From positions 1 through 21,568 of the forward strand of contig JAWBKB010000024.1 in assembly GCA_038831915.1 (NCBI GenBank): a stretch of 21,568 bases of DNA, in the 5' to 3' direction. The position numbers and the translations under genes were made by a program. The notes under the pieces are model-generated. The model was given only the letters and a program-made list of their open reading frames with translations. It made no database searches and had not been told where the DNA came from. Source of the stretch: Candidatus Caldarchaeum sp. (GTDB lineage: Archaea > Thermoproteota > Nitrososphaeria_A > Caldarchaeales > Caldarchaeaceae). Below are positions 8,572 through 16,957 of the stretch, one piece after another (the stretch's first letter is position 1; each line of letters starts with the position of its first letter).

Positions 8572-10539
8572 TTAGTCAGATTGAAGCATCGGCGTAATCA
8601 TCTCAAAAAATTTAAGTGATTCAGGGTTGATGATCGAATCGCGGTTTGTCACTTTCCTACCGTTGATAATGTTCGACACGGCGATTTCGACTTTTTTCAT
8701 GTTAAAGGTGTATGGAATGTCGGGCGCCTCTAGAATCAGGGCCGGAACATGACGGGGTGAAGCCTTAGCCCGAAGCTCCTCTTTTATTCGTCGCTTAAGC
8801 TCCTCGGTGAGTTGATGTCCTTTAGCCATCTTGACGAATAGAATGATGCGTTGGTCTTCTTTCCAGTTTTGGCCGACGGCTAAGCTGTCCGCTATTTCGT
8901 GGAAAGATTCTACGATGGCGTATATTTCAGCTGTGCCTATTCTCACACCGGATGGCTTGAGAACCGCGTCCGACCTTCCCAAGAAAGTGATGCCACCTGT
9001 GTCGCTGTGGAAAATCACAAAATCACCATGCCGCCAAACACGTTTGTGTCGATAAAATCGGAAATACGAATCGAGATACTTATCGTTACCCGGGTCGTTT
9101 AGAAAGTAGATCGGCATAGGCGGCGCCGGCGCTTCACATACCAGCTCTCCTTCTTTGTCATAGACAGCGTTGCCGTTTTCGTCGTAGCATTTGATTTTCA
9201 TGCCAAGAGCTGGTGACTGAATTTGGCCGGCGTACACGGGCAGAACGGGCGAGCCGTTGGCAAAGGTTCCGTTGATGTCAGTGCCTCCTGAAATCGAGTT
9301 GAAGTGATGGTCTTCCTTCACGTGTTCATACACCCATTTGAAACCGTCTGGCGAAAGGACAGAACCAGTCTGTGAAATCTCTCGTAATGATGAAAGGTCA
9401 AAGTATTTCCCCGGCTCAGCTCCGGCTCCTCTGAGTGAATTGATGTAGCTCGCGCTGCAGCCGAAGATGGTGATGCGAAACTCATCTACAAGTTTCCACA
9501 TGGTTCGCCAATCCCTGTAATTCGGGTCACCATCGTAAAGCACGATTTGTGCGCCCACAGCTAGCGCTGGCATAATCCAGTTCCACATCATCCAGCTCGG
9601 CGTCGTGATGTACGTGATGGCATCATCTTTCTTCAAATCGCTATGAATGACCAAATCTTTCAGCTGGTTAACCAAGATTCCTGCCAAAGGTTGGGCCATG
9701 CATTTTGGTTTACCAGTAGTTCCAGACGAAAACATGATGTAGACAGGGATGTTAGAAGGTACCTGTGCAAAGTCAAACCAAGTTTTTGAAGGGCCTTTGA
9801 ACTCGTGGTATCCCACGCCTTTCGGAATACTTGGCTGACCGTCCGAGCTGGCATACGGTACTAAAATCACTTTTTTAATCGAGGCAACCTTTTCGACGAC
9901 CTTTTCAACTCTTTCCTGAATCGAATACTGTTTACCCTTGTAAAAATAGCCGTCTACGGTGAATAGGATCTTTGGTTGAATTTGTTCGAGTCTGTCGACC
10001 ACTGTGACTGTTCCCAGCTCGGTTCCAACGGAGGACCACGTGGCGCCGAGAGCTGTTGTTGCGAGCATCGCGACAACTGTTTCGACGGTGTTCGGCATGT
10101 AGCCCGCCACGACATCGCCATGGCCTACCCCGGCTTCACGAAGACCTTCAGCAACCGATACCGCTTCACGGAAAAGGTCAAGATACGATAATCGCCTGAC
10201 CAGTCCATCTTCTCTAACAGCCGTCAAAGCAGTTGAATGATCACGAATTTTCAGCAAATTCTCGGCAAAGTTGAGGCTGGCGCCAACGAACCATGACGCA
10301 CCCGGAAATTTTGAGAGGTCGTCAACGACTTGTGTGAAAGGCTGTGAGGCTTTGATGTCGAGAAAATTCCATGTTGCGGCCCAAAATTCGTGGAGGTGTT
10401 CAACGGACCAGTTGTATAGCTGAAAGTAAGCCTTTTCACGCAACGGGTCGATGTCAAGGCCCTCCCGTTCAGACACGAATTGAATGAATTTTGTCATGTT
10501 GGCGTTTTCGACGATGTCTTCAGATGGCTTCCACAGCAT
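8572..10539 (-). CDS. Acetoacetate--CoA ligase (acetoacetyl-CoA synthetase)
   Basis: LWKPS, LNFAENLL, YIMFSSGTTGKPKC, WMMWNW, SISGGTDI, WRHGDF, GRSDAVLKPSGVRIGTAEIY, SPRHVP and KKVE. Start is ATG 10539 or TTG 10542. Confidence 0.93.
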   Translation of the reverse strand: MLWKPSEDIVENANMTKFIQFVSEREGLDIDPLREKAYFQLYNWSVEHLHEFWAATWNFLDIKASQPFTQVVDDLSKFPGASWFVGASLNFAENLLKIRDHSTALTAVREDGLVRRLSYLDLFREAVSVAEGLREAGVGHGDVVAGYMPNTVETVVAMLATTALGATWSSVGTELGTVTVVDRLEQIQPKILFTVDGYFYKGKQYSIQERVEKVVEKVASIKKVILVPYASSDGQPSIPKGVGYHEFKGPSKTWFDFAQVPSNIPVYIMFSSGTTGKPKCMAQPLAGILVNQLKDLVIHSDLKKDDAITYITTPSWMMWNWIMPALAVGAQIVLYDGDPNYRDWRTMWKLVDEFRITIFGCSASYINSLRGAGAEPGKYFDLSSLREISQTGSVLSPDGFKWVYEHVKEDHHFNSISGGTDINGTFANGSPVLPVYAGQIQSPALGMKIKCYDENGNAVYDKEGELVCEAPAPPMPIYFLNDPGNDKYLDSYFRFYRHKRVWRHGDFVIFHSDTGGITFLGRSDAVLKPSGVRIGTAEIYAIVESFHEIADSLAVGQNWKEDQRIILFVKMAKGHQLTEELKRRIKEELRAKASPRHVPALILEAPDIPYTFNMKKVEIAVSNIINGRKVTNRDSIINPESLKFFEMITPMLQSD

Positions 10540-10585
10540 CAACGCCCCGCATAATTACACCTCGTAGCCAGCTATAAAGACTATC

Positions 10586-10597
10586 AATTTTTTAAAT
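10586..10597 (+). promoter_or_regulatory. TATA box for a leaderless gene starting at 10618
   Basis: AATTTTTTAAAT about 21-28 nt upstream of ATG 10618. A divergent CTTTATAG (minus strand, 10572-10579) may serve the ligase. Confidence 0.55.
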
Positions 10598-10617
10598 TCC
10601 CCACGCCAAAGAAGTTC

Positions 10618-11229
10618 ATGAATGAATCATTCGACCCGGCCGCAGCTGTGGTTATTGTTGCCATCATCTTTTTTAGTTTCTACGTCGTGGGTTCGACGGC
10701 AAGCCGAAAAAAGATCGCGAAAATCGGTTCTTCTATTCAACAAGCAGTTGCCGAGCTCGGCGGAAAAACAACAGCGGCTCGATTCGGCGTTTCAGCGGCC
10801 GTCCTATCTTTCAAAGGTCTGGGGAATATGGAACAATTTTCCGTCGTCGTGGGGATATCGTCGTGGGCCAACCCATTGAGCTATGTTATTTCCAGAGTCA
10901 TGAAGAAAAAAGACCTGCTGATTCTACGGGGGAAAATTTCAAAGCCGCCATCATCTTCATTTACTCTTATTCACAAAGATTCACCCGCGATGCGTTACGC
11001 AGACCGGTGGGGAACTTTCGTGGACAGAATCGACTCTTATGTTTTGTTCTCAGTCGAGGAGAACGCGCCGAAGAACTTCGTTGAACAGGTTGTTTCAGCA
11101 CTTCGTCCCCTCGACATACTATATTTGGTGTCCTTTAGCAAGGAATTGCCGCATCTACACGTCTATGCTTCGCCCTCGGAGCCGGAAAAGATAAAAACAT
11201 TACTTTCTATTCTAAAAAAGCTTATATGA
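10618..11229 (+). CDS. Hypothetical protein with an N-terminal transmembrane anchor
   Basis: 203 aa ORF filling the gap. A hydrophobic AAAVVIVAIIFFSFYVVG segment is followed by basic RKKIAK, and a TATA lies at leaderless distance. Confidence 0.8.
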   Translation: MNESFDPAAAVVIVAIIFFSFYVVGSTASRKKIAKIGSSIQQAVAELGGKTTAARFGVSAAVLSFKGLGNMEQFSVVVGISSWANPLSYVISRVMKKKDLLILRGKISKPPSSSFTLIHKDSPAMRYADRWGTFVDRIDSYVLFSVEENAPKNFVEQVVSALRPLDILYLVSFSKELPHLHVYASPSEPEKIKTLLSILKKLI

Positions 11230-11259
11230 GTTCAATATATGTTTTATCACGATTAGAAA

Positions 11260-13050
11260 ATGGTTTTCGACACACCATTCGGTTTCACGGTCGTCGGCAT
11301 TGTTGTATTTCTGTTCGCATACATGGTGTATAGCAAGATCATCGACCGAAAGGTGTGGAGCCCTGACAGGTCAAGACCAACGCCAGCCCACATGTACGCC
11401 GACGGAGTCGAATTCTTTCCAGTAGGTCGCTTCGTTCTCTACGGGTTTCAGTGGAACAGCATCGCGGCTCTGGGGCCCATAATCGGGCCGGGCACAGCGG
11501 CCCTCGCCTTCGGATGGCTACCGGCATTTCTGTGGATTTTGTTCGCGGCGCTTTTGATAGGATGGGTTCAAGACTATAGCGCGATATTTCTGTCGGTGAG
11601 GAAAGAAGGAAGGTCTTTCGGGCCGCTCGCATACGAAATGCTGGGCCCGACTCCGCGAAGGCTGCTGCTCGGTTTCCTGCTCCTGTATCTACTGCTGATT
11701 AACGCTGCGTTTCTGTTCGTTGTGGCGACAACGATGAACGCTTTTCCCGGGTCATTCTGGTCGTTGCTGGTGCTTGTCATCGCGGCGATGATAACAGGTC
11801 ATTTGCTTTTCAGACTAAAAATGAGCGTGGGCCCAGTAACCCTTCTCGCCGTGTTCCTCCAAGCGGTTGGAATCGCGTTGGGTGCGACCATTCTTTCGAA
11901 CGTGCCGCCGCCGGGAACCTTTGTCTTCACACCGCCACCGCCAGGAGTGACACCAGCAGCAAACCCATACACCTATTGGCTCGTCCCACTTGTCGCCATC
12001 CTCATTTTAGGCTCTCTACTACCCATGCCCCGTCTCATCACGCCCATGAACTACATCGCGTACTACTCGTTGATACCCGCGGTGCTTCTTCTGACCATCG
12101 GAGCCCTCGTATCTCCGCTGACTGGAGTGAAACTTCAAGTTCCTGAATTCCGCGGATGGGCCGAAGTGGTCACCGTGGGGCCTCTCTGGCCTGCGCTGTT
12201 TGTGACTATTGCATGCGGAGCGATATCTGGATGGCACAGCCTCGTCAGCACAGGACTAACATCGAAACAGATTGACGTCGAAACAGACATCAGACCCGTC
12301 GGGGCAGGAGCCATGATCACGGAAAACTTAGTGGGCCTCTCAGCTCTCGCAGCATGGTCTTCAATACCGCTTTTAACCATCGCTGGCGAAGCTTCACCCG
12401 GAAACTTCGTTCTAGGAGCAACAACGCTAACTTCTTTCCTTGTAGGCGGTGAAGCGGCCGTCCCGTTCTTACGAGTATTCTTCGCAAACTACATGGTCGG
12501 CATGGCGGTCACCATACTCACAATTCTCGGAAGGTTCTGGAGAGTAACGATGGCTGAAGTATTCGGAGGCACACCGCTTTCGATACTCGGAAATAAATTC
12601 ATCGCCTCTGTTCTCGGCTTCGTCTTTCCAATCGCCTTCGTTCTGACAGGCAGCTGGACAAACATCTGGCTGTACTTCGGTGGAACGAACCAGCTTCTCG
12701 CCGGATTCGCATTACTCATCGTTGGCCTCTTCCTTTACACACAGAGAAAATTCCATTGGTACACAACCATTCCTGGCATCTTCATGATGGTCACGACCTT
12801 GGCCGCCATCGCTTACCAGACGTCGATTTTCGCCAGAGCTCTCGCAGGTGAAAATCTAAGAGGTCTCGGACCCGGACTGCTGCACGCAACACAGAGTATT
12901 GTTCTTAACGCAGCTGGTCCTGGAGGGTTGATTGCCATCAACGCATTTTCGACGGTGGTAGGTGCATTGATGTTCGTCATCGGGCTGGCGATGACCTTGT
13001 ACTTCATCAGAGGATTCCGTAAAGCGGCGAAGGTTGAAGTTAAGGCATAA
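11260..13050 (+). CDS. cstA: Carbon starvation protein A (CstA) family peptide/pyruvate transporter
   Basis: TPAHMYADGVEFFP, SIAALGPIIGP, FGWLPAFLWI, LFVTIACGAISGWHSLVS, GAMITE and FGGTNQLLA; many TM helices; 596 aa. Confidence 0.95.
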   Translation: MVFDTPFGFTVVGIVVFLFAYMVYSKIIDRKVWSPDRSRPTPAHMYADGVEFFPVGRFVLYGFQWNSIAALGPIIGPGTAALAFGWLPAFLWILFAALLIGWVQDYSAIFLSVRKEGRSFGPLAYEMLGPTPRRLLLGFLLLYLLLINAAFLFVVATTMNAFPGSFWSLLVLVIAAMITGHLLFRLKMSVGPVTLLAVFLQAVGIALGATILSNVPPPGTFVFTPPPPGVTPAANPYTYWLVPLVAILILGSLLPMPRLITPMNYIAYYSLIPAVLLLTIGALVSPLTGVKLQVPEFRGWAEVVTVGPLWPALFVTIACGAISGWHSLVSTGLTSKQIDVETDIRPVGAGAMITENLVGLSALAAWSSIPLLTIAGEASPGNFVLGATTLTSFLVGGEAAVPFLRVFFANYMVGMAVTILTILGRFWRVTMAEVFGGTPLSILGNKFIASVLGFVFPIAFVLTGSWTNIWLYFGGTNQLLAGFALLIVGLFLYTQRKFHWYTTIPGIFMMVTTLAAIAYQTSIFARALAGENLRGLGPGLLHATQSIVLNAAGPGGLIAINAFSTVVGALMFVIGLAMTLYFIRGFRKAAKVEVKA

Positions 13051-13077
13051 ACTCTCCTCATATTTTTATCATTGCGG

Positions 13078-13095
13078 CGAAACACTTTTTAAATA
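13078..13095 (+). promoter_or_regulatory. BRE/TATA promoter for the small protein-ATPase-ATPase operon
   Basis: CGAAACAC-TTTTTAAATA ending ~20 nt upstream of ATG 13115 (leaderless spacing). Confidence 0.55.
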
Positions 13096-13114
13096 AGTTA
13101 AAGCTTGTATTTAC

Positions 13115-13396
13115 ATGTCTGAGGAACGCAAGGGCGGCGTTTTGTCGGGCATCAGGAAAGCCGTCGGGGACATGTTCTATGGGGTGGCGCTACATCAACA
13201 AGTCACTTCGGTGCTCAAAACCCGAATGTACATGGAGCATTTGTTCATACTGATGGTAATGGGTGACATGCTTGGTTTTCCAATTCTTCCACCATATTAT
13301 TCGCTTCGTCTCCTACCCTACGCGATTCCAAACGTCAAAGCCTGGAAACACCGATTTTACCGTGAAAGAGATTTCACGGACGTGATTTATGGTTGA
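13115..13396 (+). CDS. Small CstA-associated protein (resembles the cory-CC-star family but lacks the C-terminal Cys-Cys), paralog A
   Basis: 93 aa with LFILMVMGDMLGFPILPPYYSLRLLPY...W..R. It lies between cstA and an ArsA-like ATPase, the context known for this family. Confidence 0.8.
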   Translation: MSEERKGGVLSGIRKAVGDMFYGVALHQQVTSVLKTRMYMEHLFILMVMGDMLGFPILPPYYSLRLLPYAIPNVKAWKHRFYRERDFTDVIYG

Positions 13397-14376
13397 AAGG
13401 GTTTAACTCGTTTCTAGCGTCAAAACCAAATCTCAAGATGGTGATTTTCGCCGGTAAGGGAGGGTTGGGCAAAACAACATGCAGCGCCGCGTTATCCTAC
13501 GCGGTTTCGTCAAGCAAAAAGGTTCTCTGTTTCAGCACAGACCCACAAGCCTCTCTCAGCGATATTTTCGAGCAGAACATTTTCGGTAAAGGCGAAGTCG
13601 AAGTAAGGCCCAACCTTTTCGTTGTCGAAATAGATGCCGACACGAAGATTGCGCGATACATAGAAGAAATTAAACAGAAAATCCGTGACATGTATAAAAT
13701 GGAGGTTCCACCTGAAATCGAATCTTACATCGACAGCTCAGTGGCGGAACCCGCCATGTACGAATCGGCGACCTACGATGCGATGGCCGAATATCTCGCC
13801 GCGGGAAACTACGGACTATACGTTTTCGACATGCCTCCTTTCGGCCATGGAATAAGGATGATCACTATGGCTGACATCCTCAGCGCATGGGTTGAAAAGC
13901 TAACCGAGGCGCGGGAAAAAGCAAGGGAATATGATGAAATCGCGCGAAGACTTAAAGGTGAAAAACTGGTCAAAGAAGACGAAGTGTTGACGGAGCTCTA
14001 CGACATCAAGAAAAAGCTCACGACCTTCACTGACGTGATGAAGGACAGAGAAAAGGCTGCTTTCTTCATGGTTATCACGCCAGAGCGCATGTCGATCATC
14101 GACACCGAGAAAGCGTTGGAGATGTTTAAATCAGTTGGAATCGAGCTTGCAGGCATCGTTGTCAACAAAGTTCTACCGCCCGAAATGACTTCAAACCCGT
14201 CTCCTTTCATCGCAAACAAACTCAAACAACAAAAAGAATGCATGACCGAGATAATGGACAAATTCGGCAAACTCGTGATATCCATAATTCCCATGTTTCC
14301 CCGAGAACCACGAGGCATCGAAGGAATCGCCGCAGTTTCAAAACACCTGATGAGCGGAGGAATCGAATGGACATGA
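13393..14376 (+). CDS. ArsA/Get3 (TRC40)-family ATPase, intact catalytic motifs
   Basis: Deviant Walker A GKGGLGKTT, switch I STDPQASL, switch II DMPPFGH, VITPE and VVNKV. The TTG start overlaps the previous stop. Confidence 0.92.
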   Translation: MKGFNSFLASKPNLKMVIFAGKGGLGKTTCSAALSYAVSSSKKVLCFSTDPQASLSDIFEQNIFGKGEVEVRPNLFVVEIDADTKIARYIEEIKQKIRDMYKMEVPPEIESYIDSSVAEPAMYESATYDAMAEYLAAGNYGLYVFDMPPFGHGIRMITMADILSAWVEKLTEAREKAREYDEIARRLKGEKLVKEDEVLTELYDIKKKLTTFTDVMKDREKAAFFMVITPERMSIIDTEKALEMFKSVGIELAGIVVNKVLPPEMTSNPSPFIANKLKQQKECMTEIMDKFGKLVISIIPMFPREPRGIEGIAAVSKHLMSGGIEWT

Positions 14377-15365
14377 AGCAGGGCATCAACCTCGGCAAAG
14401 CAAAATACATATTCGTAGGTGGGAAAGGCGGAGTCGGAAAAACCGTTTCTGCCGGAGCACTCGCTATCGATTCCGTAAGGCAAGGTAAATCGGTTTTGCT
14501 TGCGAGCCTAAACCCAGTCCATTCCCTAAGTAGTTTGTTTATGCAAGACCTTTCCGGCGGAACCTTTAAGAAAGTCGAGGGAATACAAGGGCTGACGACG
14601 GTCGAAGTCGAGATATCAGACCTTGTTGATAGATACCGAGCGAACATGGCATCAAGACTGAAAGAGTTCTTCAAATGGGCTGAAATACCGATAAACCCCG
14701 ACCCCTTCATCCAAATCGCTACGACGAATCCCGCGTTTCAGGAATCAGCAATGTTCGACAAAGTCATGGAAATAATGGTGACGGAAGGAGAAAAGTATGA
14801 CGTGGTCGTTTTCGACACAGCCGCAGTCGCGAACGCTGTAAGGCTGATTGGGCTAAGCAAGCTCTACGGTCTGTGGCTGGCGCGGATGATACAATCTCGG
14901 AAAGAAGCACAAGAATACAGGCTGCGTCTATCAGTTCGAAAAGAAAAAATCATGGAAGAAATCAAGAAAGACCCCGTGGTCGCAGACCTCATCAACCTCT
15001 ACGAAAGATTCAACAAAACCCGCCAGTCCATCACCGACCCCGAGAAAACTCTGTTCTACTTCGTAACAACGCCTGAAAGCCTGCCCATATCAGTGGTTAG
15101 AAGATTCATTTCGATGGTACAGTCTTTCAACATTCCAGTTGGTGGCATTTTCGTGAACATGGTTCTTGACCGCGGCGACGTTGCAACAGACCCCACGGGA
15201 TATCTTTCGTCAAAATGGGAAGAGCAAAGACACTACCTCGAAATAATCGAAAGAGACCTCGGCCAGCATGTTCGAGGATTTATTCGGATGTATCCGACCG
15301 AGATCCGAGGAATCAACGCCTTGGAAAAAATCATCGACGACATTTCGCAGTTCGTGCCCGCCTAG
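14367..15365 (+). CDS. ArsA/Get3 (TRC40)-family ATPase paralog with degenerate switch motifs
   Basis: GKGGVGKTV, SLNPVHSL, FDTAAVAN, VTTPESLP and FVNMV. A GGAGG SD at 14356-14360 supports ATG 14367 (or 14373 with ATGA overlap), not the ORF-track start at 14238. Confidence 0.9.
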   Translation: MDMKQGINLGKAKYIFVGGKGGVGKTVSAGALAIDSVRQGKSVLLASLNPVHSLSSLFMQDLSGGTFKKVEGIQGLTTVEVEISDLVDRYRANMASRLKEFFKWAEIPINPDPFIQIATTNPAFQESAMFDKVMEIMVTEGEKYDVVVFDTAAVANAVRLIGLSKLYGLWLARMIQSRKEAQEYRLRLSVRKEKIMEEIKKDPVVADLINLYERFNKTRQSITDPEKTLFYFVTTPESLPISVVRRFISMVQSFNIPVGGIFVNMVLDRGDVATDPTGYLSSKWEEQRHYLEIIERDLGQHVRGFIRMYPTEIRGINALEKIIDDISQFVPA

Positions 15366-15667
15366 TGAACGGCTGGGCCTTCGTGTAACAGTTCAAGGAT
15401 GTCCACATCGCGTAAAAGTCTTTTCTTCGCTTCTTCGAGCTGCGGAAGGAAGTAGGGAATCAGCCTTATGGTGAAGTAGTTTCCAAGAACAGGTATTCCC
15501 AAAAATTCTCCCATTACGAGAGAGAAGAAAATGTCGTCGTATTTGTGCTTAAAGCTGACAACGCTTTGGTAAAGGCTGAGCATTAACGCTCCGAAAAGAA
15601 AATCTTTTACAGCTTGTTTTAGTCCGCCGGTCCTCGTCCCCACTACGGGCTCGCTTTTTTCAGCCAT
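15362..15667 (-). CDS. Small CstA-associated protein, paralog B
   Basis: 101 aa with DDIFFSLVMGEFLGIPVLGNYFTIRLIPY, aligning end to end with 13115..13396. Confidence 0.82.
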   Translation of the reverse strand: MAEKSEPVVGTRTGGLKQAVKDFLFGALMLSLYQSVVSFKHKYDDIFFSLVMGEFLGIPVLGNYFTIRLIPYFLPQLEEAKKRLLRDVDILELLHEGPAVH

Positions 15668-16050
15668 GCCTGCTCAACCGCCGACCGGAGTTTTTCCCAT
15701 TCAATTTTTCCGTCGCAAACCTTTTTACCGTCAACGACTATCGCCGGCCTTCTCAAAATTCCATGCCTTATGCTGCGGAAAAAACCAACCGGCGAAATCA
15801 AGTTAACCATTTCAACTTCGACGTTCATGTTTTTTCCGACAAAATTGTTTCTAAGAAATTTCACAATTTCCGCTGCTTTGCGGTGGTTGGCTATAATGTC
15901 GTCCGGATATTCCGTGGCTTGGGTGGAAAGCTCGCAAAATTCAGCGCCCATCGCATACATTTCCGCTGAAAGAAGGTTGTAGTGCGGGCAGTGACCGAGC
16001 GTCATTGGGTAAATTTCGTAAAGCTCCACCTTGACGGACTTCAAAACCAC
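15643..16050 (-). CDS. Hypothetical protein, probable thioredoxin-like fold (paralog 1)
   Basis: 135 aa. The C-terminal GILRRPAIVVDGKKV resembles the cis-Pro/beta motif of glutaredoxin-like proteins, and there is an N-terminal HCPHY. Confidence 0.75.
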   Translation of the reverse strand: MVLKSVKVELYEIYPMTLGHCPHYNLLSAEMYAMGAEFCELSTQATEYPDDIIANHRKAAEIVKFLRNNFVGKNMNVEVEMVNLISPVGFFRSIRHGILRRPAIVVDGKKVCDGKIEWEKLRSAVEQAWLKKASP

Positions 16051-16105
16051 CGATAATTATTTTAGTTTTAAGCTTTATTAACGTTTCCAACCATCTACTT
16101 GCTGG

Positions 16106-16483
16106 TTGCGTCAACGTGTTTACCTGGTCGGACTGTTTCCGTCTATATTTTCAGCTACGGCGCGTTACCCTCTGTTGAGCATGCGTGACTTCATCTCTCA
16201 GTTAAAAGAATATCCTCCCGAATTAACATCGAGAATGGATTTCATCAGAAATTTCGTCAAAAGGTTGACCGCTGAAGGCTTCGACGTTAAAATCGTTCAT
16301 TCTGTTTCTCCACTCGGTGTTTGGCTTTCGATGCGTTACCGGCTTAACTCCAGTTTCTACTGTATCGTAAACGGCCAGAGAATCAGGCTGGTCGGCGACC
16401 TCGACTGGCTTATTAGAGAGATTAAAGCCGCAGCACATAAGGAGAGGAGGAAATTTTTCGGAGGTTTTCGAGTGGTGAAGTAA
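16106..16483 (+). CDS. Hypothetical protein, divergent paralog of 15643..16050
   Basis: 125 aa sharing Q..EYP, V..V...SP.G...S.R and IV.G with the divergent gene. TTG start is uncertain. Confidence 0.72.
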   Translation: MRQRVYLVGLFPSIFSATARYPLLSMRDFISQLKEYPPELTSRMDFIRNFVKRLTAEGFDVKIVHSVSPLGVWLSMRYRLNSSFYCIVNGQRIRLVGDLDWLIREIKAAAHKERRKFFGGFRVVK

Positions 16484-16957
16484 ATGGCGAGAAAATTCGA
16501 ACTGGCGACAGGTAACTTGTTGATGGGAAGGTTTCTATGGCTTTTGTTGGACGTGCCAGAAGGATGGACCGTAAAAGTCGGCGACATTCCATCGGATGTC
16601 TACTACACAACGATAGTCGAAGGCAACGGATGGATAACAGACGGCTCGACAAGCTATTTCCTAGTAAATCTGGTGAACGGGGAAGTATACGACCTCGAGC
16701 TCAAAGTCAAAAAAGGCGTTAAGGAGCTGGGCAGGTTGATGACGTCGGGCGGAGAAAAGACAGTGGTTAACGGACACATAGCCTCGGTTGTTCACCGCGA
16801 GGTCAAAAAAGGGTTCCGCCGAACACCGATGAAACAAATGGCCATCACCGTTCCTTGCGACAGAACAATGCGGACCATCGAGCTGACAGTTACAGGGAAA
16901 AATTCCGACGGGCTCGACCAGATTAAACAAAGCTTAGCAAACTCGCGATGCCATTAA
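16484..16957 (+). CDS. Hypothetical protein
   Basis: 157 aa ORF starting immediately after the previous stop (TAAATG) with a GGTGA SD. It has C-terminal VPCDRT and CH. Confidence 0.75.
   Translation: MARKFELATGNLLMGRFLWLLLDVPEGWTVKVGDIPSDVYYTTIVEGNGWITDGSTSYFLVNLVNGEVYDLELKVKKGVKELGRLMTSGGEKTVVNGHIASVVHREVKKGFRRTPMKQMAITVPCDRTMRTIELTVTGKNSDGLDQIKQSLANSRCH

Follow-up and report, generated by a model that had tools for sequence, protein, structure and literature searches.

A conserved CstA permease module with two dissimilar Get3/ArsA-like ATPases and small helper proteins in Caldarchaeales

The window analyzed here (the whole stretch of 21,568 nucleotides on Candidatus Caldarchaeum sp. contig JAWBKB010000024.1) carries a further copy of a widely conserved module that combines a CstA-family permease with two unequal ATPases of the Get3/ArsA type and small helper proteins. 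The nine genes may encode one CstA-based multi-subunit membrane complex with a half-active ATPase heterodimer coupled to CstA, a reading to which we give an even chance. ORF calling and Pfam searches resolve positions 10618-16957 into these nine genes:

10618..11229, forward strand: CstY, a 203-aa ORF with an N-terminal TM helix
11260..13050, forward strand: CstA-family permease (cstA), 596 aa (Pfam CstA PF02554, E 4.7e-99)
13115..13396, forward strand: CstX-A, a small conserved partner of 93 aa (DUF7990 in Pfam 38.1)
13393..14376, forward strand: Get3/ArsA-type ATPase subunit 1, 327 aa (ArsA_ATPase, E 8.7e-68)
14373..15365, forward strand: Get3/ArsA-type ATPase subunit 2, 330 aa (ArsA_ATPase, E 8.5e-51)
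15362..15667, reverse strand: CstX-B, a CstX-A paralog of 101 aa, convergent with ATPase subunit 2
15643..16050, reverse strand: T-A, a thioredoxin (Trx)-like accessory protein of 135 aa (Thioredoxin_3, E 0.02, below cut-off)
16106..16483, forward strand: T-B (g8), a Trx-like protein of 125 aa, divergent T-A paralog
16484..16957, forward strand: g9, an accessory protein of 157 aa with a Mog1p/PsbP-like beta-sandwich

The stop codon of CstX-A overlaps the start of ATPase subunit 1 by four bases (TTGA), and the two ATPase genes share a four-base stop/start overlap (ATGA); subunit 2 has an alternative in-frame start (ATG) at 14367. Pairwise alignment confirms all three paralogous pairs that had been read from the sequence alone, namely CstX-A/CstX-B (28/91 identical, 31%, E 3e-18), the ATPases (81/298 identical, E 9e-38) and T-A/T-B (29/116 identical, 25%, E 1e-7), and the two proteins which that sequence-only reading had left as unknowns do not align with each other at E≤100. 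The genes of its "eight-gene CstA locus" exist as described, but they number nine, and the small proteins said to flank cstA actually lie on either side of the ATPase pair. These proteins, called hydrophobic, are only moderately so (best 19-residue Kyte-Doolittle means of 1.54 and 1.43, vs 2.46 for the TM helix of CstY). The claimed absence of arsB/acr3, arsC, arsD and arsR is borne out, in that the 22 window proteins gave no Pfam family match to ArsB, Acr3, ArsC, ArsD or ArsR.

Conserved co-occurrence of the genes, which had been proposed as a check, was found by gene-neighborhood and phylogenetic profiling in Caldarchaeales, Archaea and Bacteria, and supports the view that the nine genes are one conserved functional set. 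CstX is present in 20 of 41 Caldarchaeales genomes and CstA in the identical 20; full-length ArsA homologs (E<1e-30) occur in 19 of these 20 and in none of the 21 remaining genomes, two of which belong to the same genus and are 99% complete. The host genome has a single cstA, and its only ArsA-family genes are the two described here. In relatives, 18 regions keep the genes together in rearranged order. Across a wide set of 80 loci (45 from Archaea and 35 from Bacteria), CstX is found in 80, the ATPase family in 77, CstA in 69, CstY in 45, g9 in 36 and T in 30, with all six families together in 12 loci; of the bacterial loci, 12 contain CstY, 7 contain g9 and 12 contain T, and the accessory counts are limited by contig ends and the 10-kb flank. 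Because the gene set recurs in shuffled order across Archaea and Bacteria, its association is far above chance. The argument that paralogy ties the transcription units into one locus does not always hold, as the second CstX paralog is far from the module in three relatives (G027, G034, and G036), and its flanks in G027 and G034 (L033 and L040), as fetched, contain no other module gene. In a close relative, cstA, X, both ATPases and g8/g9 are represented among the contigs of an RNA library, a weak argument, since DNA may have been carried over into the library.

The ATPases are adjacent in 71 of the 80 loci, and two further pairs are split solely by N runs. At the switch-I position, all 70 first subunits compared have Asp and all 70 second subunits have Asn, and the P-loops are intact in both sets. 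Subunit 1 of the window carries the P-loop, switch-I Asp50 and P-x-G-H, and is predicted from these motifs to be catalytically complete; subunit 2 retains an intact P-loop and has Asn47 for the switch-I Asp and A-N for G-H. Second subunits form one pure clade in the tree (all 71, support 1.0). With this clade, the earlier proposal of an A/B ATPase pair is upheld, and sequence comparison shows an ancient, near-universally paired A/B set in which one partner keeps the complete catalytic site and the other carries a fixed Asn. Subunit 1 scores 210 bits against TIGR00345 (cut-off 135) and aligns end to end, insert region included, with archaeal Get3 (3zq6, E 2.3e-47; 3ug6). The region aligned with the Get3 insert is four residues shorter and charged, and the CxxC site of Get3 is replaced. 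Subunit 2 of the window has no cysteine at all, and neither ATPase family alignment contains an invariant Cys or anything else that looks like a soft-metal site.

Judged by its score against the NCBIfam equivalog for E. coli CstA (158 bits, cut-off 1188), which is named pyruvate/proton symporter, the window permease is far from that protein. CstX-A has 3506 homologs at E≤1e-3, the bacterial ones being 54-58% identical, and the CstX family has 20 invariant columns in a 34-sequence alignment. Orthologs of CstX-B are found in relatives, at times at a separate locus. Since its hydrophobicity does not mark CstX as a clear TM protein, it is uncertain how far it extends into the membrane; about 25 charged residues follow the hydrophobic stretch. 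Among 20 long CstX homologs, natural fusions join X to ArsA (4), a Trx-like protein to X (5) and X to X (3), and none joins CstX to CstA. These rare fusions, with CstX N-terminal to the cytoplasmic ATPase in the X-ArsA ones, hint at a link between the small proteins and the ATPases, and the four-base overlaps of CstX-A with ATPase subunit 1 and of the two ATPase genes are a further hint of coupling.

CstY is predicted to be a single-pass membrane protein in which an N-terminal TM helix (residues 8-26) is followed by a cytoplasmic alpha/beta domain. Its AF2 model (mean pLDDT 95.0) matches CCDC47 chain 7tm3_4 in VIA-align with Z 16.2 (rmsd 2.7, 199 aligned), followed by 9i78_4 (Z 14.9) and TtfA 6t84 (Z 11.8), with unrelated rows at 8.3 or below; according to its paper, structure 9I78 contains CCDC47 residues 76-447. 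The structural match covers CCDC47 chain residues 135-390. Of 40 CstY family members, 10 hit Pfam CCDC47 at E≤10 (best 2.8e-7, one above cut-off), within profile positions 8-201 of 326, whereas the CstY of the window gives no hit. By its modeled fold, CstY is related to CCDC47 and TtfA but shorter. A literature search found no paper pairing CCDC47 with Asgard or TtfA with CCDC47.

The T family (30 of 80 loci) and g9 (36 of 80) are conserved accessories. T-A reaches 15.4 bits against Thioredoxin_3 (cut-off 24.8), and T-B orthologs adjoin T-A in genus relatives. A CxxC at the thioredoxin active-site position is present in 15 of 27 aligned T members, often as H-C-x-H-C, and in none of the nine Caldarchaeales rows; in this lineage the former CxxC site of T-A reads HCPHY, and T-B lacks Cys at the equivalent site. 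In g9, Cys125, Cys156, and Arg130 are invariant and His98 and His157 near-invariant (34-sequence alignment), His157 being part of a C-terminal Cys-His motif. The AF2 model of g9 (mean pLDDT 94.5) resembles Tsi3/PsbP in Foldseek (E 3e-4, TM about 0.5), and a wide VIA search gave BT_1490 (Z 11.2), PsbP (9.7), LpqN (9.1), Mog1 (8.6), and SciW (7.3). The structure of SciW has been solved bound to a transmembrane domain.

Going from the linkage of these genes to products that energize, gate or insert CstA, as the sequence-only reading did, is a step of inference. In the proposed complex, the two ATPases would pair as a heterodimer of the Get3/ArsA kind in which only one site hydrolyzes ATP, and to which CstX-A and CstX-B may bind, and CstX-A/B together with membrane-anchored CstY would couple this dimer to CstA. 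ATP binding and hydrolysis would then drive or gate CstA transport, as ArsA does for ArsB, and the Trx-like proteins and Cys/His-bearing, PsbP-like g9 would be cytoplasmic accessories, perhaps in substrate hand-over, sensing or assembly. However, CstX is neither fused to CstA among the 20 long homologs nor a clear TM protein, its second gene lies away from the module in three relatives, CstA-family carriers function elsewhere without any ATPase, the accessories are absent from many of the 80 loci, and energizing of transport leaves the Trx-like, PsbP-like and CCDC47-like proteins unexplained.

A dedicated module for membrane-protein biogenesis or quality control, which we consider unlikely, would account for some of the same features. 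The Get3-like heterodimer would hold hydrophobic stretches of its clients, CstX and CstA perhaps among them, and pass them to the membrane at CCDC47-like CstY, aiding insertion, folding or assembly of multipass CstA, with capture and release timed by ATP hydrolysis as in the GET pathway. In eukaryotes, Get3 and CCDC47 both serve in membrane-protein biogenesis, which favors this explanation, as do the full-length alignment of ATPase 1 with archaeal Get3, the whole-length match of CstY to multipass-translocon CCDC47 and the Pfam CCDC47 hits within the CstY family; the small, moderately hydrophobic CstX and the inclusion of SciW in the g9 fold class are also consistent with it. However, most CstA homologs manage without such helpers, and a seven-family system for one permease would be costly. 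Of the 41 relatives, the 21 without CstA also lack the ATPases, which are thus not general targeting factors, and CstX, with its charged stretch and N-terminal fusion to a cytoplasmic ATPase, is not a classical tail-anchored client. The shortened, charged insert region, the replaced CxxC site of Get3 and the missing C-terminal CCDC47 part of CstY also argue against it.

Rather improbable is a thiol or metal pump with the hand-over logic of ArsD-ArsA-ArsB, in which the Trx-like protein and g9 would capture a thiophilic substrate or metal and deliver it to the paired ATPases, to be exported via CstA. ArsD is a Trx-fold chaperone of ArsA, and the CxxC that T proteins have in most lineages, the conserved Cys and His of g9, the T-CstX fusions and the Fe-S DUF2148 genes that flank 7 of the 80 modules would suit such a route; yet the ATPases show no evident soft-metal site, both T copies have lost CxxC here while the module is kept, and T and g9 are absent from more than half of the loci. 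That the module is an arsenic pump is very unlikely, and a role of the ATPases as ArsA proper in arsenite/antimonite resistance, which automatic annotation would assign, has only the slightest probability. Matches to Pfam ArsA_ATPase and the NCBIfam GET3_arsA_TRC40 subfamily, and PDB relatives named "arsenical pump-driving ATPase" by depositors, point that way, but the ATPases are single-domain, have no conserved cysteines and reach 92 and 80 bits where the ArsA equivalog TIGR04291 has a cut-off of 650. With ars genes also absent nearby and, according to Castillo and Saier (PMC2963123), from all cst operons, the earlier warning that such an annotation is probably wrong is well founded.

Returning to the CstA-coupled complex, several known systems share parts of it. 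Mycobacterial BagA/BagB (NCBIfam NF053622/NF053621) are likewise encoded by two adjacent Get3/ArsA-like ATPase genes; the window ATPases match them in the P-loop region only, at 36-39 and 28-29 bits (cut-offs 400 and 521), and orthology was rejected. CCDC47 (PAT complex/multipass translocon) and TtfA (a mycobacterial MmpL3 accessory factor) share with CstY a TM helix and a globular cytoplasmic domain, but CstY, at about 200 aa, lacks the lumenal N-terminal and the C-terminal parts of CCDC47, and the likeness lies in the predicted fold and in the low-scoring Pfam CCDC47 hits that recur within the CstY family. Get3/TRC40 and archaeal Get3 resemble subunit 1 in fold, length and possession of the deviant Walker A, switch I and switch II. 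Unlike the symmetric Get3 homodimer, the module has an obligate pair of diverged paralogs, found only where CstA is present among the 41 Caldarchaeales genomes, and subunit 2 naturally carries the change of yeast Get3 D57N, which binds ATP and does not hydrolyze it (PMC12506534). The ArsA-ArsB(-ArsD) pump also joins a secondary-type carrier to an ATPase of the Get3/ArsA fold whose two nucleotide-binding halves are unequal, and a Trx-like Cys protein adjoins the module in some lineages. Here, in contrast, the halves are two genes without metalloid-binding cysteines and far under the ArsA equivalog cut-off, the carrier is CstA and not ArsB/Acr3, and CstX, CstY, and g9 are extra subunits.

Closest are the cstA-cstX-(cstY)-arsA-homolog clusters that Castillo and Saier (2010; Int J Microbiol 2010:187373, PMC2963123) described from gene context, proposing that the ArsA homologs energize CstA with CstX as linker. 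They counted 26 instances and suggested for the ATPases that these "may function as homodimers"; the word heterodimer is absent from their paper. Its clusters are alike in the CstA permease, CstX of about 90 aa, single-TMS CstY of about 210 aa in archaea, single-domain ArsA homologs of about 330 aa (in some genomes adjacent pairs, 25-31% identical), paralogous CstX pairs and absence of arsenic genes. The association, both kinds of pairs and the linker idea are already there, so the system is not "undescribed" as had been suggested, although the conserved set, the A/B ATPases and the non-arsenite role in that interpretation stand. CstY, archaeal in the earlier clusters, is additionally found here in 12 of 35 bacterial loci. 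New relative to the text available are the near-universal ATPase pairing, the invariant Asp/Asn difference between the two subunits, the accessories that resemble Trx and PsbP, the natural fusions and the CCDC47-like fold predicted for CstY.

The analysis establishes that the module genes form one conserved system with an asymmetric ATPase pair. The window is archaeal, and the names attached to near-identical proteins indicate Candidatus Caldarchaeum as its source. Nine ORFs lie within positions 10618–16957 of the window.

Features of the module and its surroundings in the window (coordinates, strand, description)
1–1130, −, archaeal LSU rRNA
10618–11229, +, CstY, 203 aa, N-terminal TM helix
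11260–13050, +, CstA-family permease, 596 aa, PF02554 E 4.7e-99
13115–13396, +, CstX-A, 93 aa
13393–14376, +, ATPase 1, ArsA/Get3-type, 327 aa, PF02374 E 8.7e-68, TIGR00345 210.4 bits
14373–15365, +, ATPase 2, ArsA/Get3-type, 330 aa, PF02374 E 8.5e-51, TIGR00345 184.9 bits
15362–15667, −, CstX-B, 101 aa
15643–16050, −, T-A (Trx-like family), 135 aa, Thioredoxin_3 15.4 bits, below the cut-off of 24.8
16106–16483, +, T-B (Trx-like family), 125 aa
16484–16957, +, g9, 157 aa
17024–17127, −, tRNA (Rfam 50.2 bits; missed by ARAGORN)

The three paralogue pairs claimed in the sequence-only reading are borne out by pairwise comparison: CstX-A and CstX-B are 31% identical (E 3e-18), the two ATPases 27% (E 9e-38), and T-A and T-B 25% (E 1e-7). 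CstY and g9, which the same reading had set down as two unknowns, showed no relationship on comparison. CstX-A (93 aa) ends in a stop codon that shares bases with the TTG start of ATPase 1 (TTGA), and the ATPase 1 stop likewise overlaps the ATG of ATPase 2 (ATGA). TATA-like boxes of TTTTTAAAT type are located at positions 10589–10598 and 13087–13096, about 20–25 bases upstream of the CstY and CstX-A ATGs; the box ahead of CstX-A means that the CstX–ATPase genes may own a separate promoter inside the plus-strand unit. A common motif upstream of the transcription units was considered and dropped, the pattern being seen once only and equalled by 8 of 100 shuffles. The considerable length of the tRNA (104 bases) suggests that it is an archaeal tRNA with an intron.

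Among 41 Caldarchaeales genomes, the window's own included, CstX is present in 20 and CstA in exactly those 20. Full-length ArsA homologues (E<1e-30) are found in 19 of these 20, the exception being a 78%-complete genome, and in none of the 21 genomes without CstA. Those 21 yield short P-loop matches only; two of them belong to the genus of the window and are 99% complete. In the window's own genome, which is 95.6% complete, cstA is single and the ArsA-family genes number just these two. The ATPases are therefore no housekeeping Get3; they appear and vanish together with CstA. Across 18 regions of relatives, each of the nine gene types is seen again, in varying orders and orientations. A second CstX paralogue lies far from the module in three genomes (G027, G034, and G036), which speaks against strict clustering; the fetched flanks of two such lone CstX genes, at locus L033 (G027; about 10 kb on each side) and locus L040 (G034; about 5 and 10 kb), contain no other module gene.

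At E≤1e-3, CstX homologues number 3506, and those from bacteria retain 54–58% identity. When a collection with a single genome for each of 185,579 species was scanned, at least 599 stretches matched CstX, at least 596 of these were confirmed, and the best 80 loci were kept. As assigned by record title, the 45 archaeal loci come from Caldarchaeales, Bathyarchaeia, Thermoproteota, Sulfolobales, Desulfurococcales, Thor- and Promethearchaeota, and Methanoperedens, and the 35 bacterial loci from Anaerolineae, Syntrophales-type bacteria, Thermodesulfobacteriota, Armatimonadota, Methylomirabilis, Rokubacteria, and one betaproteobacterium. Families were counted with profiles refined iteratively on ORFs from the 80 loci; contig ends and 10-kb flanks make the counts lower bounds, and, as the profiles were built from the loci that they count, weak members may be under- or over-counted.

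Module families in the best 80 loci (all loci; Archaea; Bacteria)
X (CstX): 80/80; 45/45; 35/35
Ars (ATPase): 77/80; 44/45; 33/35
CstA: 69/80; 40/45; 29/35
CstY: 45/80; 33/45; 12/35
g9 (157-aa family): 36/80; 29/45; 7/35
T (Trx-like family): 30/80; 18/45; 12/35

All six families occur together in 12 of the best 80 loci. The co-occurrence that the sequence-only reading had put forward as a check on the locus was thus found, both as the shared presence of CstX and CstA in the same 20 of 41 Caldarchaeales genomes and, in the best 80 loci, as recurrence across Archaea and Bacteria.

Two adjacent ATPase genes are present in 71 of the 80 loci. Of the remaining nine, two have pairs separated by nothing but N runs, six are truncated at contig ends, and one (L097) shows no ATPase in its remaining 1.2 kb. 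A tree of 142 ATPase sequences places all 71 second-position subunits in a single pure clade (support 1.0), which indicates that the duplication is older than the spread over both domains. Both subunits retain GKGG[LV]GKT. First subunits carry S-[TV]-D-P-Q-A-S-L and P-x-G-H (70/70); in second subunits, Asn replaces the switch-I Asp and A-N replaces G-H (70/70). As judged by motif, the first-subunit Asp is the switch-I residue, which we take to be D57 in yeast Get3 numbering. The Asn mutant of the yeast Get3 switch-I Asp binds ATP and does not hydrolyze it, according to an excerpt of PMC12506534. No invariant Cys is found in either subunit (35-sequence alignments), and window ATPase 2 has no Cys at all. 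Complex prediction for ATPase 1, ATPase 2, CstX-B, and CstX-A, run with alignments and with CstX-A set as the partner, gave a score of 0.12 against a mark of 0.32, which speaks neither for nor against binding.

CstX corresponds to DUF7990 of Pfam 38.1. In CstX-A, 20 columns are invariant (34 sequences), with the core G-D-x-x-G-x-P-x-x-P-P-Y-Y-x-L-x-L-L-P. The top 19-residue hydropathy values (1.54 for CstX-A and 1.43 for CstX-B) are marginal for a TM helix, and the middle of the stretch is occupied by an invariant acidic residue. A set of 20 CstX homologues longer than 163 aa comprises three X–X, five T–X, and four X–ArsA fusions and eight proteins with unassigned extensions; a CstX–CstA fusion is not among them. 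Nearly all of the 20 are single sequences, so that gene-calling errors may account for some; one T–X fusion is a single open frame of 214 aa (L096:6844–7488 (+)), with Trx-like residues 1–124 and CstX residues 119–213. Fusion to soluble partners at both ends suggests that both CstX termini would be cytoplasmic. Weak matches to Nup85 in 10 of 34 members (best E 0.0022) were taken as chance, and none of the 34 matches Asterix. CstX-A and CstX-B also weakly match NCBIfam NF041419 "cory-CC-star protein" (E 1.3e-7 and 7.5e-7, under the 80-bit cut-off), and this small Corynebacterium family may therefore be a distant relative of DUF7990.

Proteins of the CstY family begin with a TM helix, after which come basic residues and a domain of about 170 aa. 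With the AF2 model of CstY (mean pLDDT 95.0), the best Foldseek matches were 7tm3_4 (E 2.5e-7), 9i78_4, and 6w6l_7, for which VIA-align gave Z scores of 16.2 (rmsd 2.7, 199/203 residues), 14.9, and 11.2, respectively; TtfA (6t84) reached Z 11.8, and unrelated rows were at or below 8.3. The 9I78 model contains CCDC47 residues 76–447 according to its paper, in agreement with a chain of 371 residues and with the range that is aligned. Given this agreement, 7tm3_4 and 6w6l_7 are presumably CCDC47 as well. Ten of 40 CstY family members match Pfam CCDC47 (PF07946) at E≤10; the best (2.8e-7, 30.4 bits, profile positions 8–201 of 326) is the sole one over the cut-off of 27.7 with 39 relatives scanned, and the window CstY has no match at E≤10. 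A PDB sequence search with the CstY profile returned nothing at E≤10. In a profile search of 1.84 billion representatives, the best 150 matches were all 146–240 aa, and none of 7998 candidates of 458–2000 aa, examined for longer CstY relatives that might lead to eukaryotic CCDC47, matched at E≤0.01. CCDC47 is "conserved across eukaryotes" (excerpt of the McGilvray paper). Literature searches pairing CCDC47 with Asgard or with TtfA found nothing, and no prokaryotic homologue was seen in the portions of the CCDC47 literature sampled.

In the T family, 15 of 27 rows carry CxxC at the position of the thioredoxin site, often as H-C-x-H-C, and none of the nine Caldarchaeales rows does; six of the 27 members match Thioredoxin_3 weakly. 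The AF2 model of g9 (pLDDT 94.5) is all-beta with one helix, and its fold belongs to the Mog1p/PsbP class by VIA (BT_1490 Z 11.2 with 125 aligned, PsbP 9.7, LpqN 9.1, Mog1 8.6), with Foldseek (E 3e-4, TM about 0.5) and Atlas leads concurring; no sequence family was found for it. Cys125, Cys156, and Arg130 of g9 are invariant, His98 and His157 are near-invariant, and the C-terminal end is Cys-His; these residues may form a candidate metal site.

An AMP-binding, ACAS_N-type acyl-CoA synthetase gene (window 8572–10542, −) adjoins cstY–cstA divergently, with thiolase-like and acyl-CoA dehydrogenase genes farther upstream. The synthetase is also found beside cstY–cstA in three genus relatives (L027, L029, and L039; 66–71% identical); this arrangement, seen within the genus alone, may hint at a carboxylate substrate. 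Recurrent neighbors naming a substrate were sought in the 80 loci, and those found, namely generic ABC ATPases (14/80), DUF2148 (7), and PanE/ApbA (5), are too few to decide. The DUF2148 ferredoxin-domain Fe-S gene (E ~1e-33) adjoins the module in L064, L071, L072, L085, L090, L098, and L110, loci that include both Anaerolineae and Asgard archaea; the gene near the module in the five PanE/ApbA cases is of 2-oxoacid-reductase type. Metatranscriptome contigs from one library of a close relative cover cstA, the cstA–X junction, both ATPases, and the g8/g9 junction (g8 being T-B), with possible DNA carry-over. Parts of the stretch have no cover in the first RNA run and the second run yielded nothing, which does not imply silence. 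One RNA-library contig (run X1) jumps back 696 bases in cstA, joining 13006 to 12311; the contig is short, and the jump probably arose in assembly.

The most economical mechanism, to which we would give an even chance, applies the ArsA–ArsB logic to CstA. The two ATPases would form a heterodimer with one hydrolyzing site, CstX and the membrane-anchored CstY would tie this heterodimer to CstA, and the heterodimer would drive or gate CstA transport. A role in biogenesis or assembly is the main, though unlikely, rival; kinship with Get3 and CCDC47 favors it, and the strict dependence on one permease and the polar insert region of the ATPase speak against it. Hand-over of thiols or metals would explain T and g9, but it is a rather improbable variant; the ATPases show no obvious binding site for it, and the lineage of the window no longer has CxxC. 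Arsenic resistance is all but ruled out. The window ATPases would probably be labeled "arsenical pump-driving ATPase" by automatic annotation; the sequence-only reading had stated that annotation as arsenite resistance would probably be wrong and that arsenic-resistance genes were absent, and both statements stand, with ArsA equivalog (TIGR04291) scores of just 92 and 79.9 bits against a cut-off of 650, no invariant Cys, and zero ars-family matches among the 22 window proteins scanned.

A further and decidedly doubtful reading sees the module as a prokaryotic machine for handling membrane proteins, one in which forerunners of two ER systems of eukaryotes are combined. A half-active Get3-type heterodimer and CstY, as a CCDC47-type membrane chaperone, would act with DUF7990 proteins on the multipass CstA, which would be a client or membrane partner and not simply an energized carrier, and eukaryotic CCDC47 would have descended from an archaeal CstY-like protein. 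The module is found in Thorarchaeota and Promethearchaeota loci. CstA-family carriers are viewed as plain proton symporters, and Get3/ArsA ATPases are taken for either motors of arsenic pumps or factors that target tail-anchored proteins. The module fits neither picture. It joins a carrier of the CstA type with a Get3-like pair that is obligate and half-active, and it includes a shortened CCDC47 relative; its elucidation would reveal either a new coupling of ATP to secondary transport or a prokaryotic root of the ER factors for membrane-protein biogenesis. Understanding it would also correct the depositors' label "arsenical pump-driving ATPase" on related PDB entries.

The sequence-only reading took the system to be undescribed, which does not hold, because clusters of cstA, cstX, sometimes cstY, and an arsA homologue were already reported in 2010 (Castillo and Saier, 2010; PMC2963123; here from excerpts). 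According to these excerpts, cstA occurs with an ArsA homologue in 26 instances and CstX in 24 of them; CstX has about 90 aa, CstY (archaea) has about 210 aa and a single TMS, and the ArsA homologues are single-domain proteins of about 330 aa. Adjacent ArsA pairs (25–31% identical) were noted in two genomes and paralogous CstX pairs in two, arsenic genes were absent from cst operons, CstX was proposed as the linker through which ArsA homologues energize CstA, and the ATPases "may function as homodimers" (Castillo and Saier, 2010). Thermococcus kodakarensis is among the organisms given there, with cstA, two cstX genes, cstY, and arsA. Our searches found no post-2010 literature naming CstX, nothing relevant on "carbon starvation protein" together with ArsA-type names, and no bench test of the module. 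The window module shares the CstA permease (PF02554) with those clusters. As far as the excerpted descriptions go, its 93-aa and 101-aa paralogues fit the CstX beside cstA and the ArsA homologue, its 203-aa CstY with one N-terminal TM helix (KD19 2.46) fits CstY, and its ATPases of 327 and 330 aa, with no ars genes among the 22 window proteins, fit the single-domain ArsA homologues.

The window ATPases lack the conserved metalloid-binding cysteines of ArsA, and Pfam detects no ArsB/Acr3 carrier family in the window. Scores for the BagA/BagB models NF053622 (cut-off 400) and NF053621 (cut-off 521) are 36.5/39.3 and 29.3/28.2 bits. The thioredoxin CxxC active site has no counterpart in T-A, which reads HCPHY, or in T-B, which has no Cys at this position. 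The modeled CstY shares the TM helix and globular cytoplasmic domain fold of CCDC47 and lacks the C-terminal part past the globular domain, the aligned portion being chain residues 135–390 and profile positions 8–201 of 326. Both ATPases pass the Get3/TRC40 subfamily model TIGR00345 (cut-off 135), and ATPase 1 aligns end to end with the archaeal Get3 structures 3zq6 (E 2.3e-47) and 3ug6 (E 2.1e-46). The CxxC zinc site at the Get3 dimer interface in these structures aligns to S-P-F-I in ATPase 1; CxxC is also missing from some functional Get3 groups (excerpt of a review). Of the Get3/TRC40 hydrophobic client groove with its TRC40 insert, the insert region is present in ATPase 1 and, when aligned with 3zq6, is four residues shorter and charged. 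Whereas the Get3/TRC40 dimer is symmetric with a switch-I Asp in each subunit, the window pair has Asp in subunit 1 and Asn in subunit 2.
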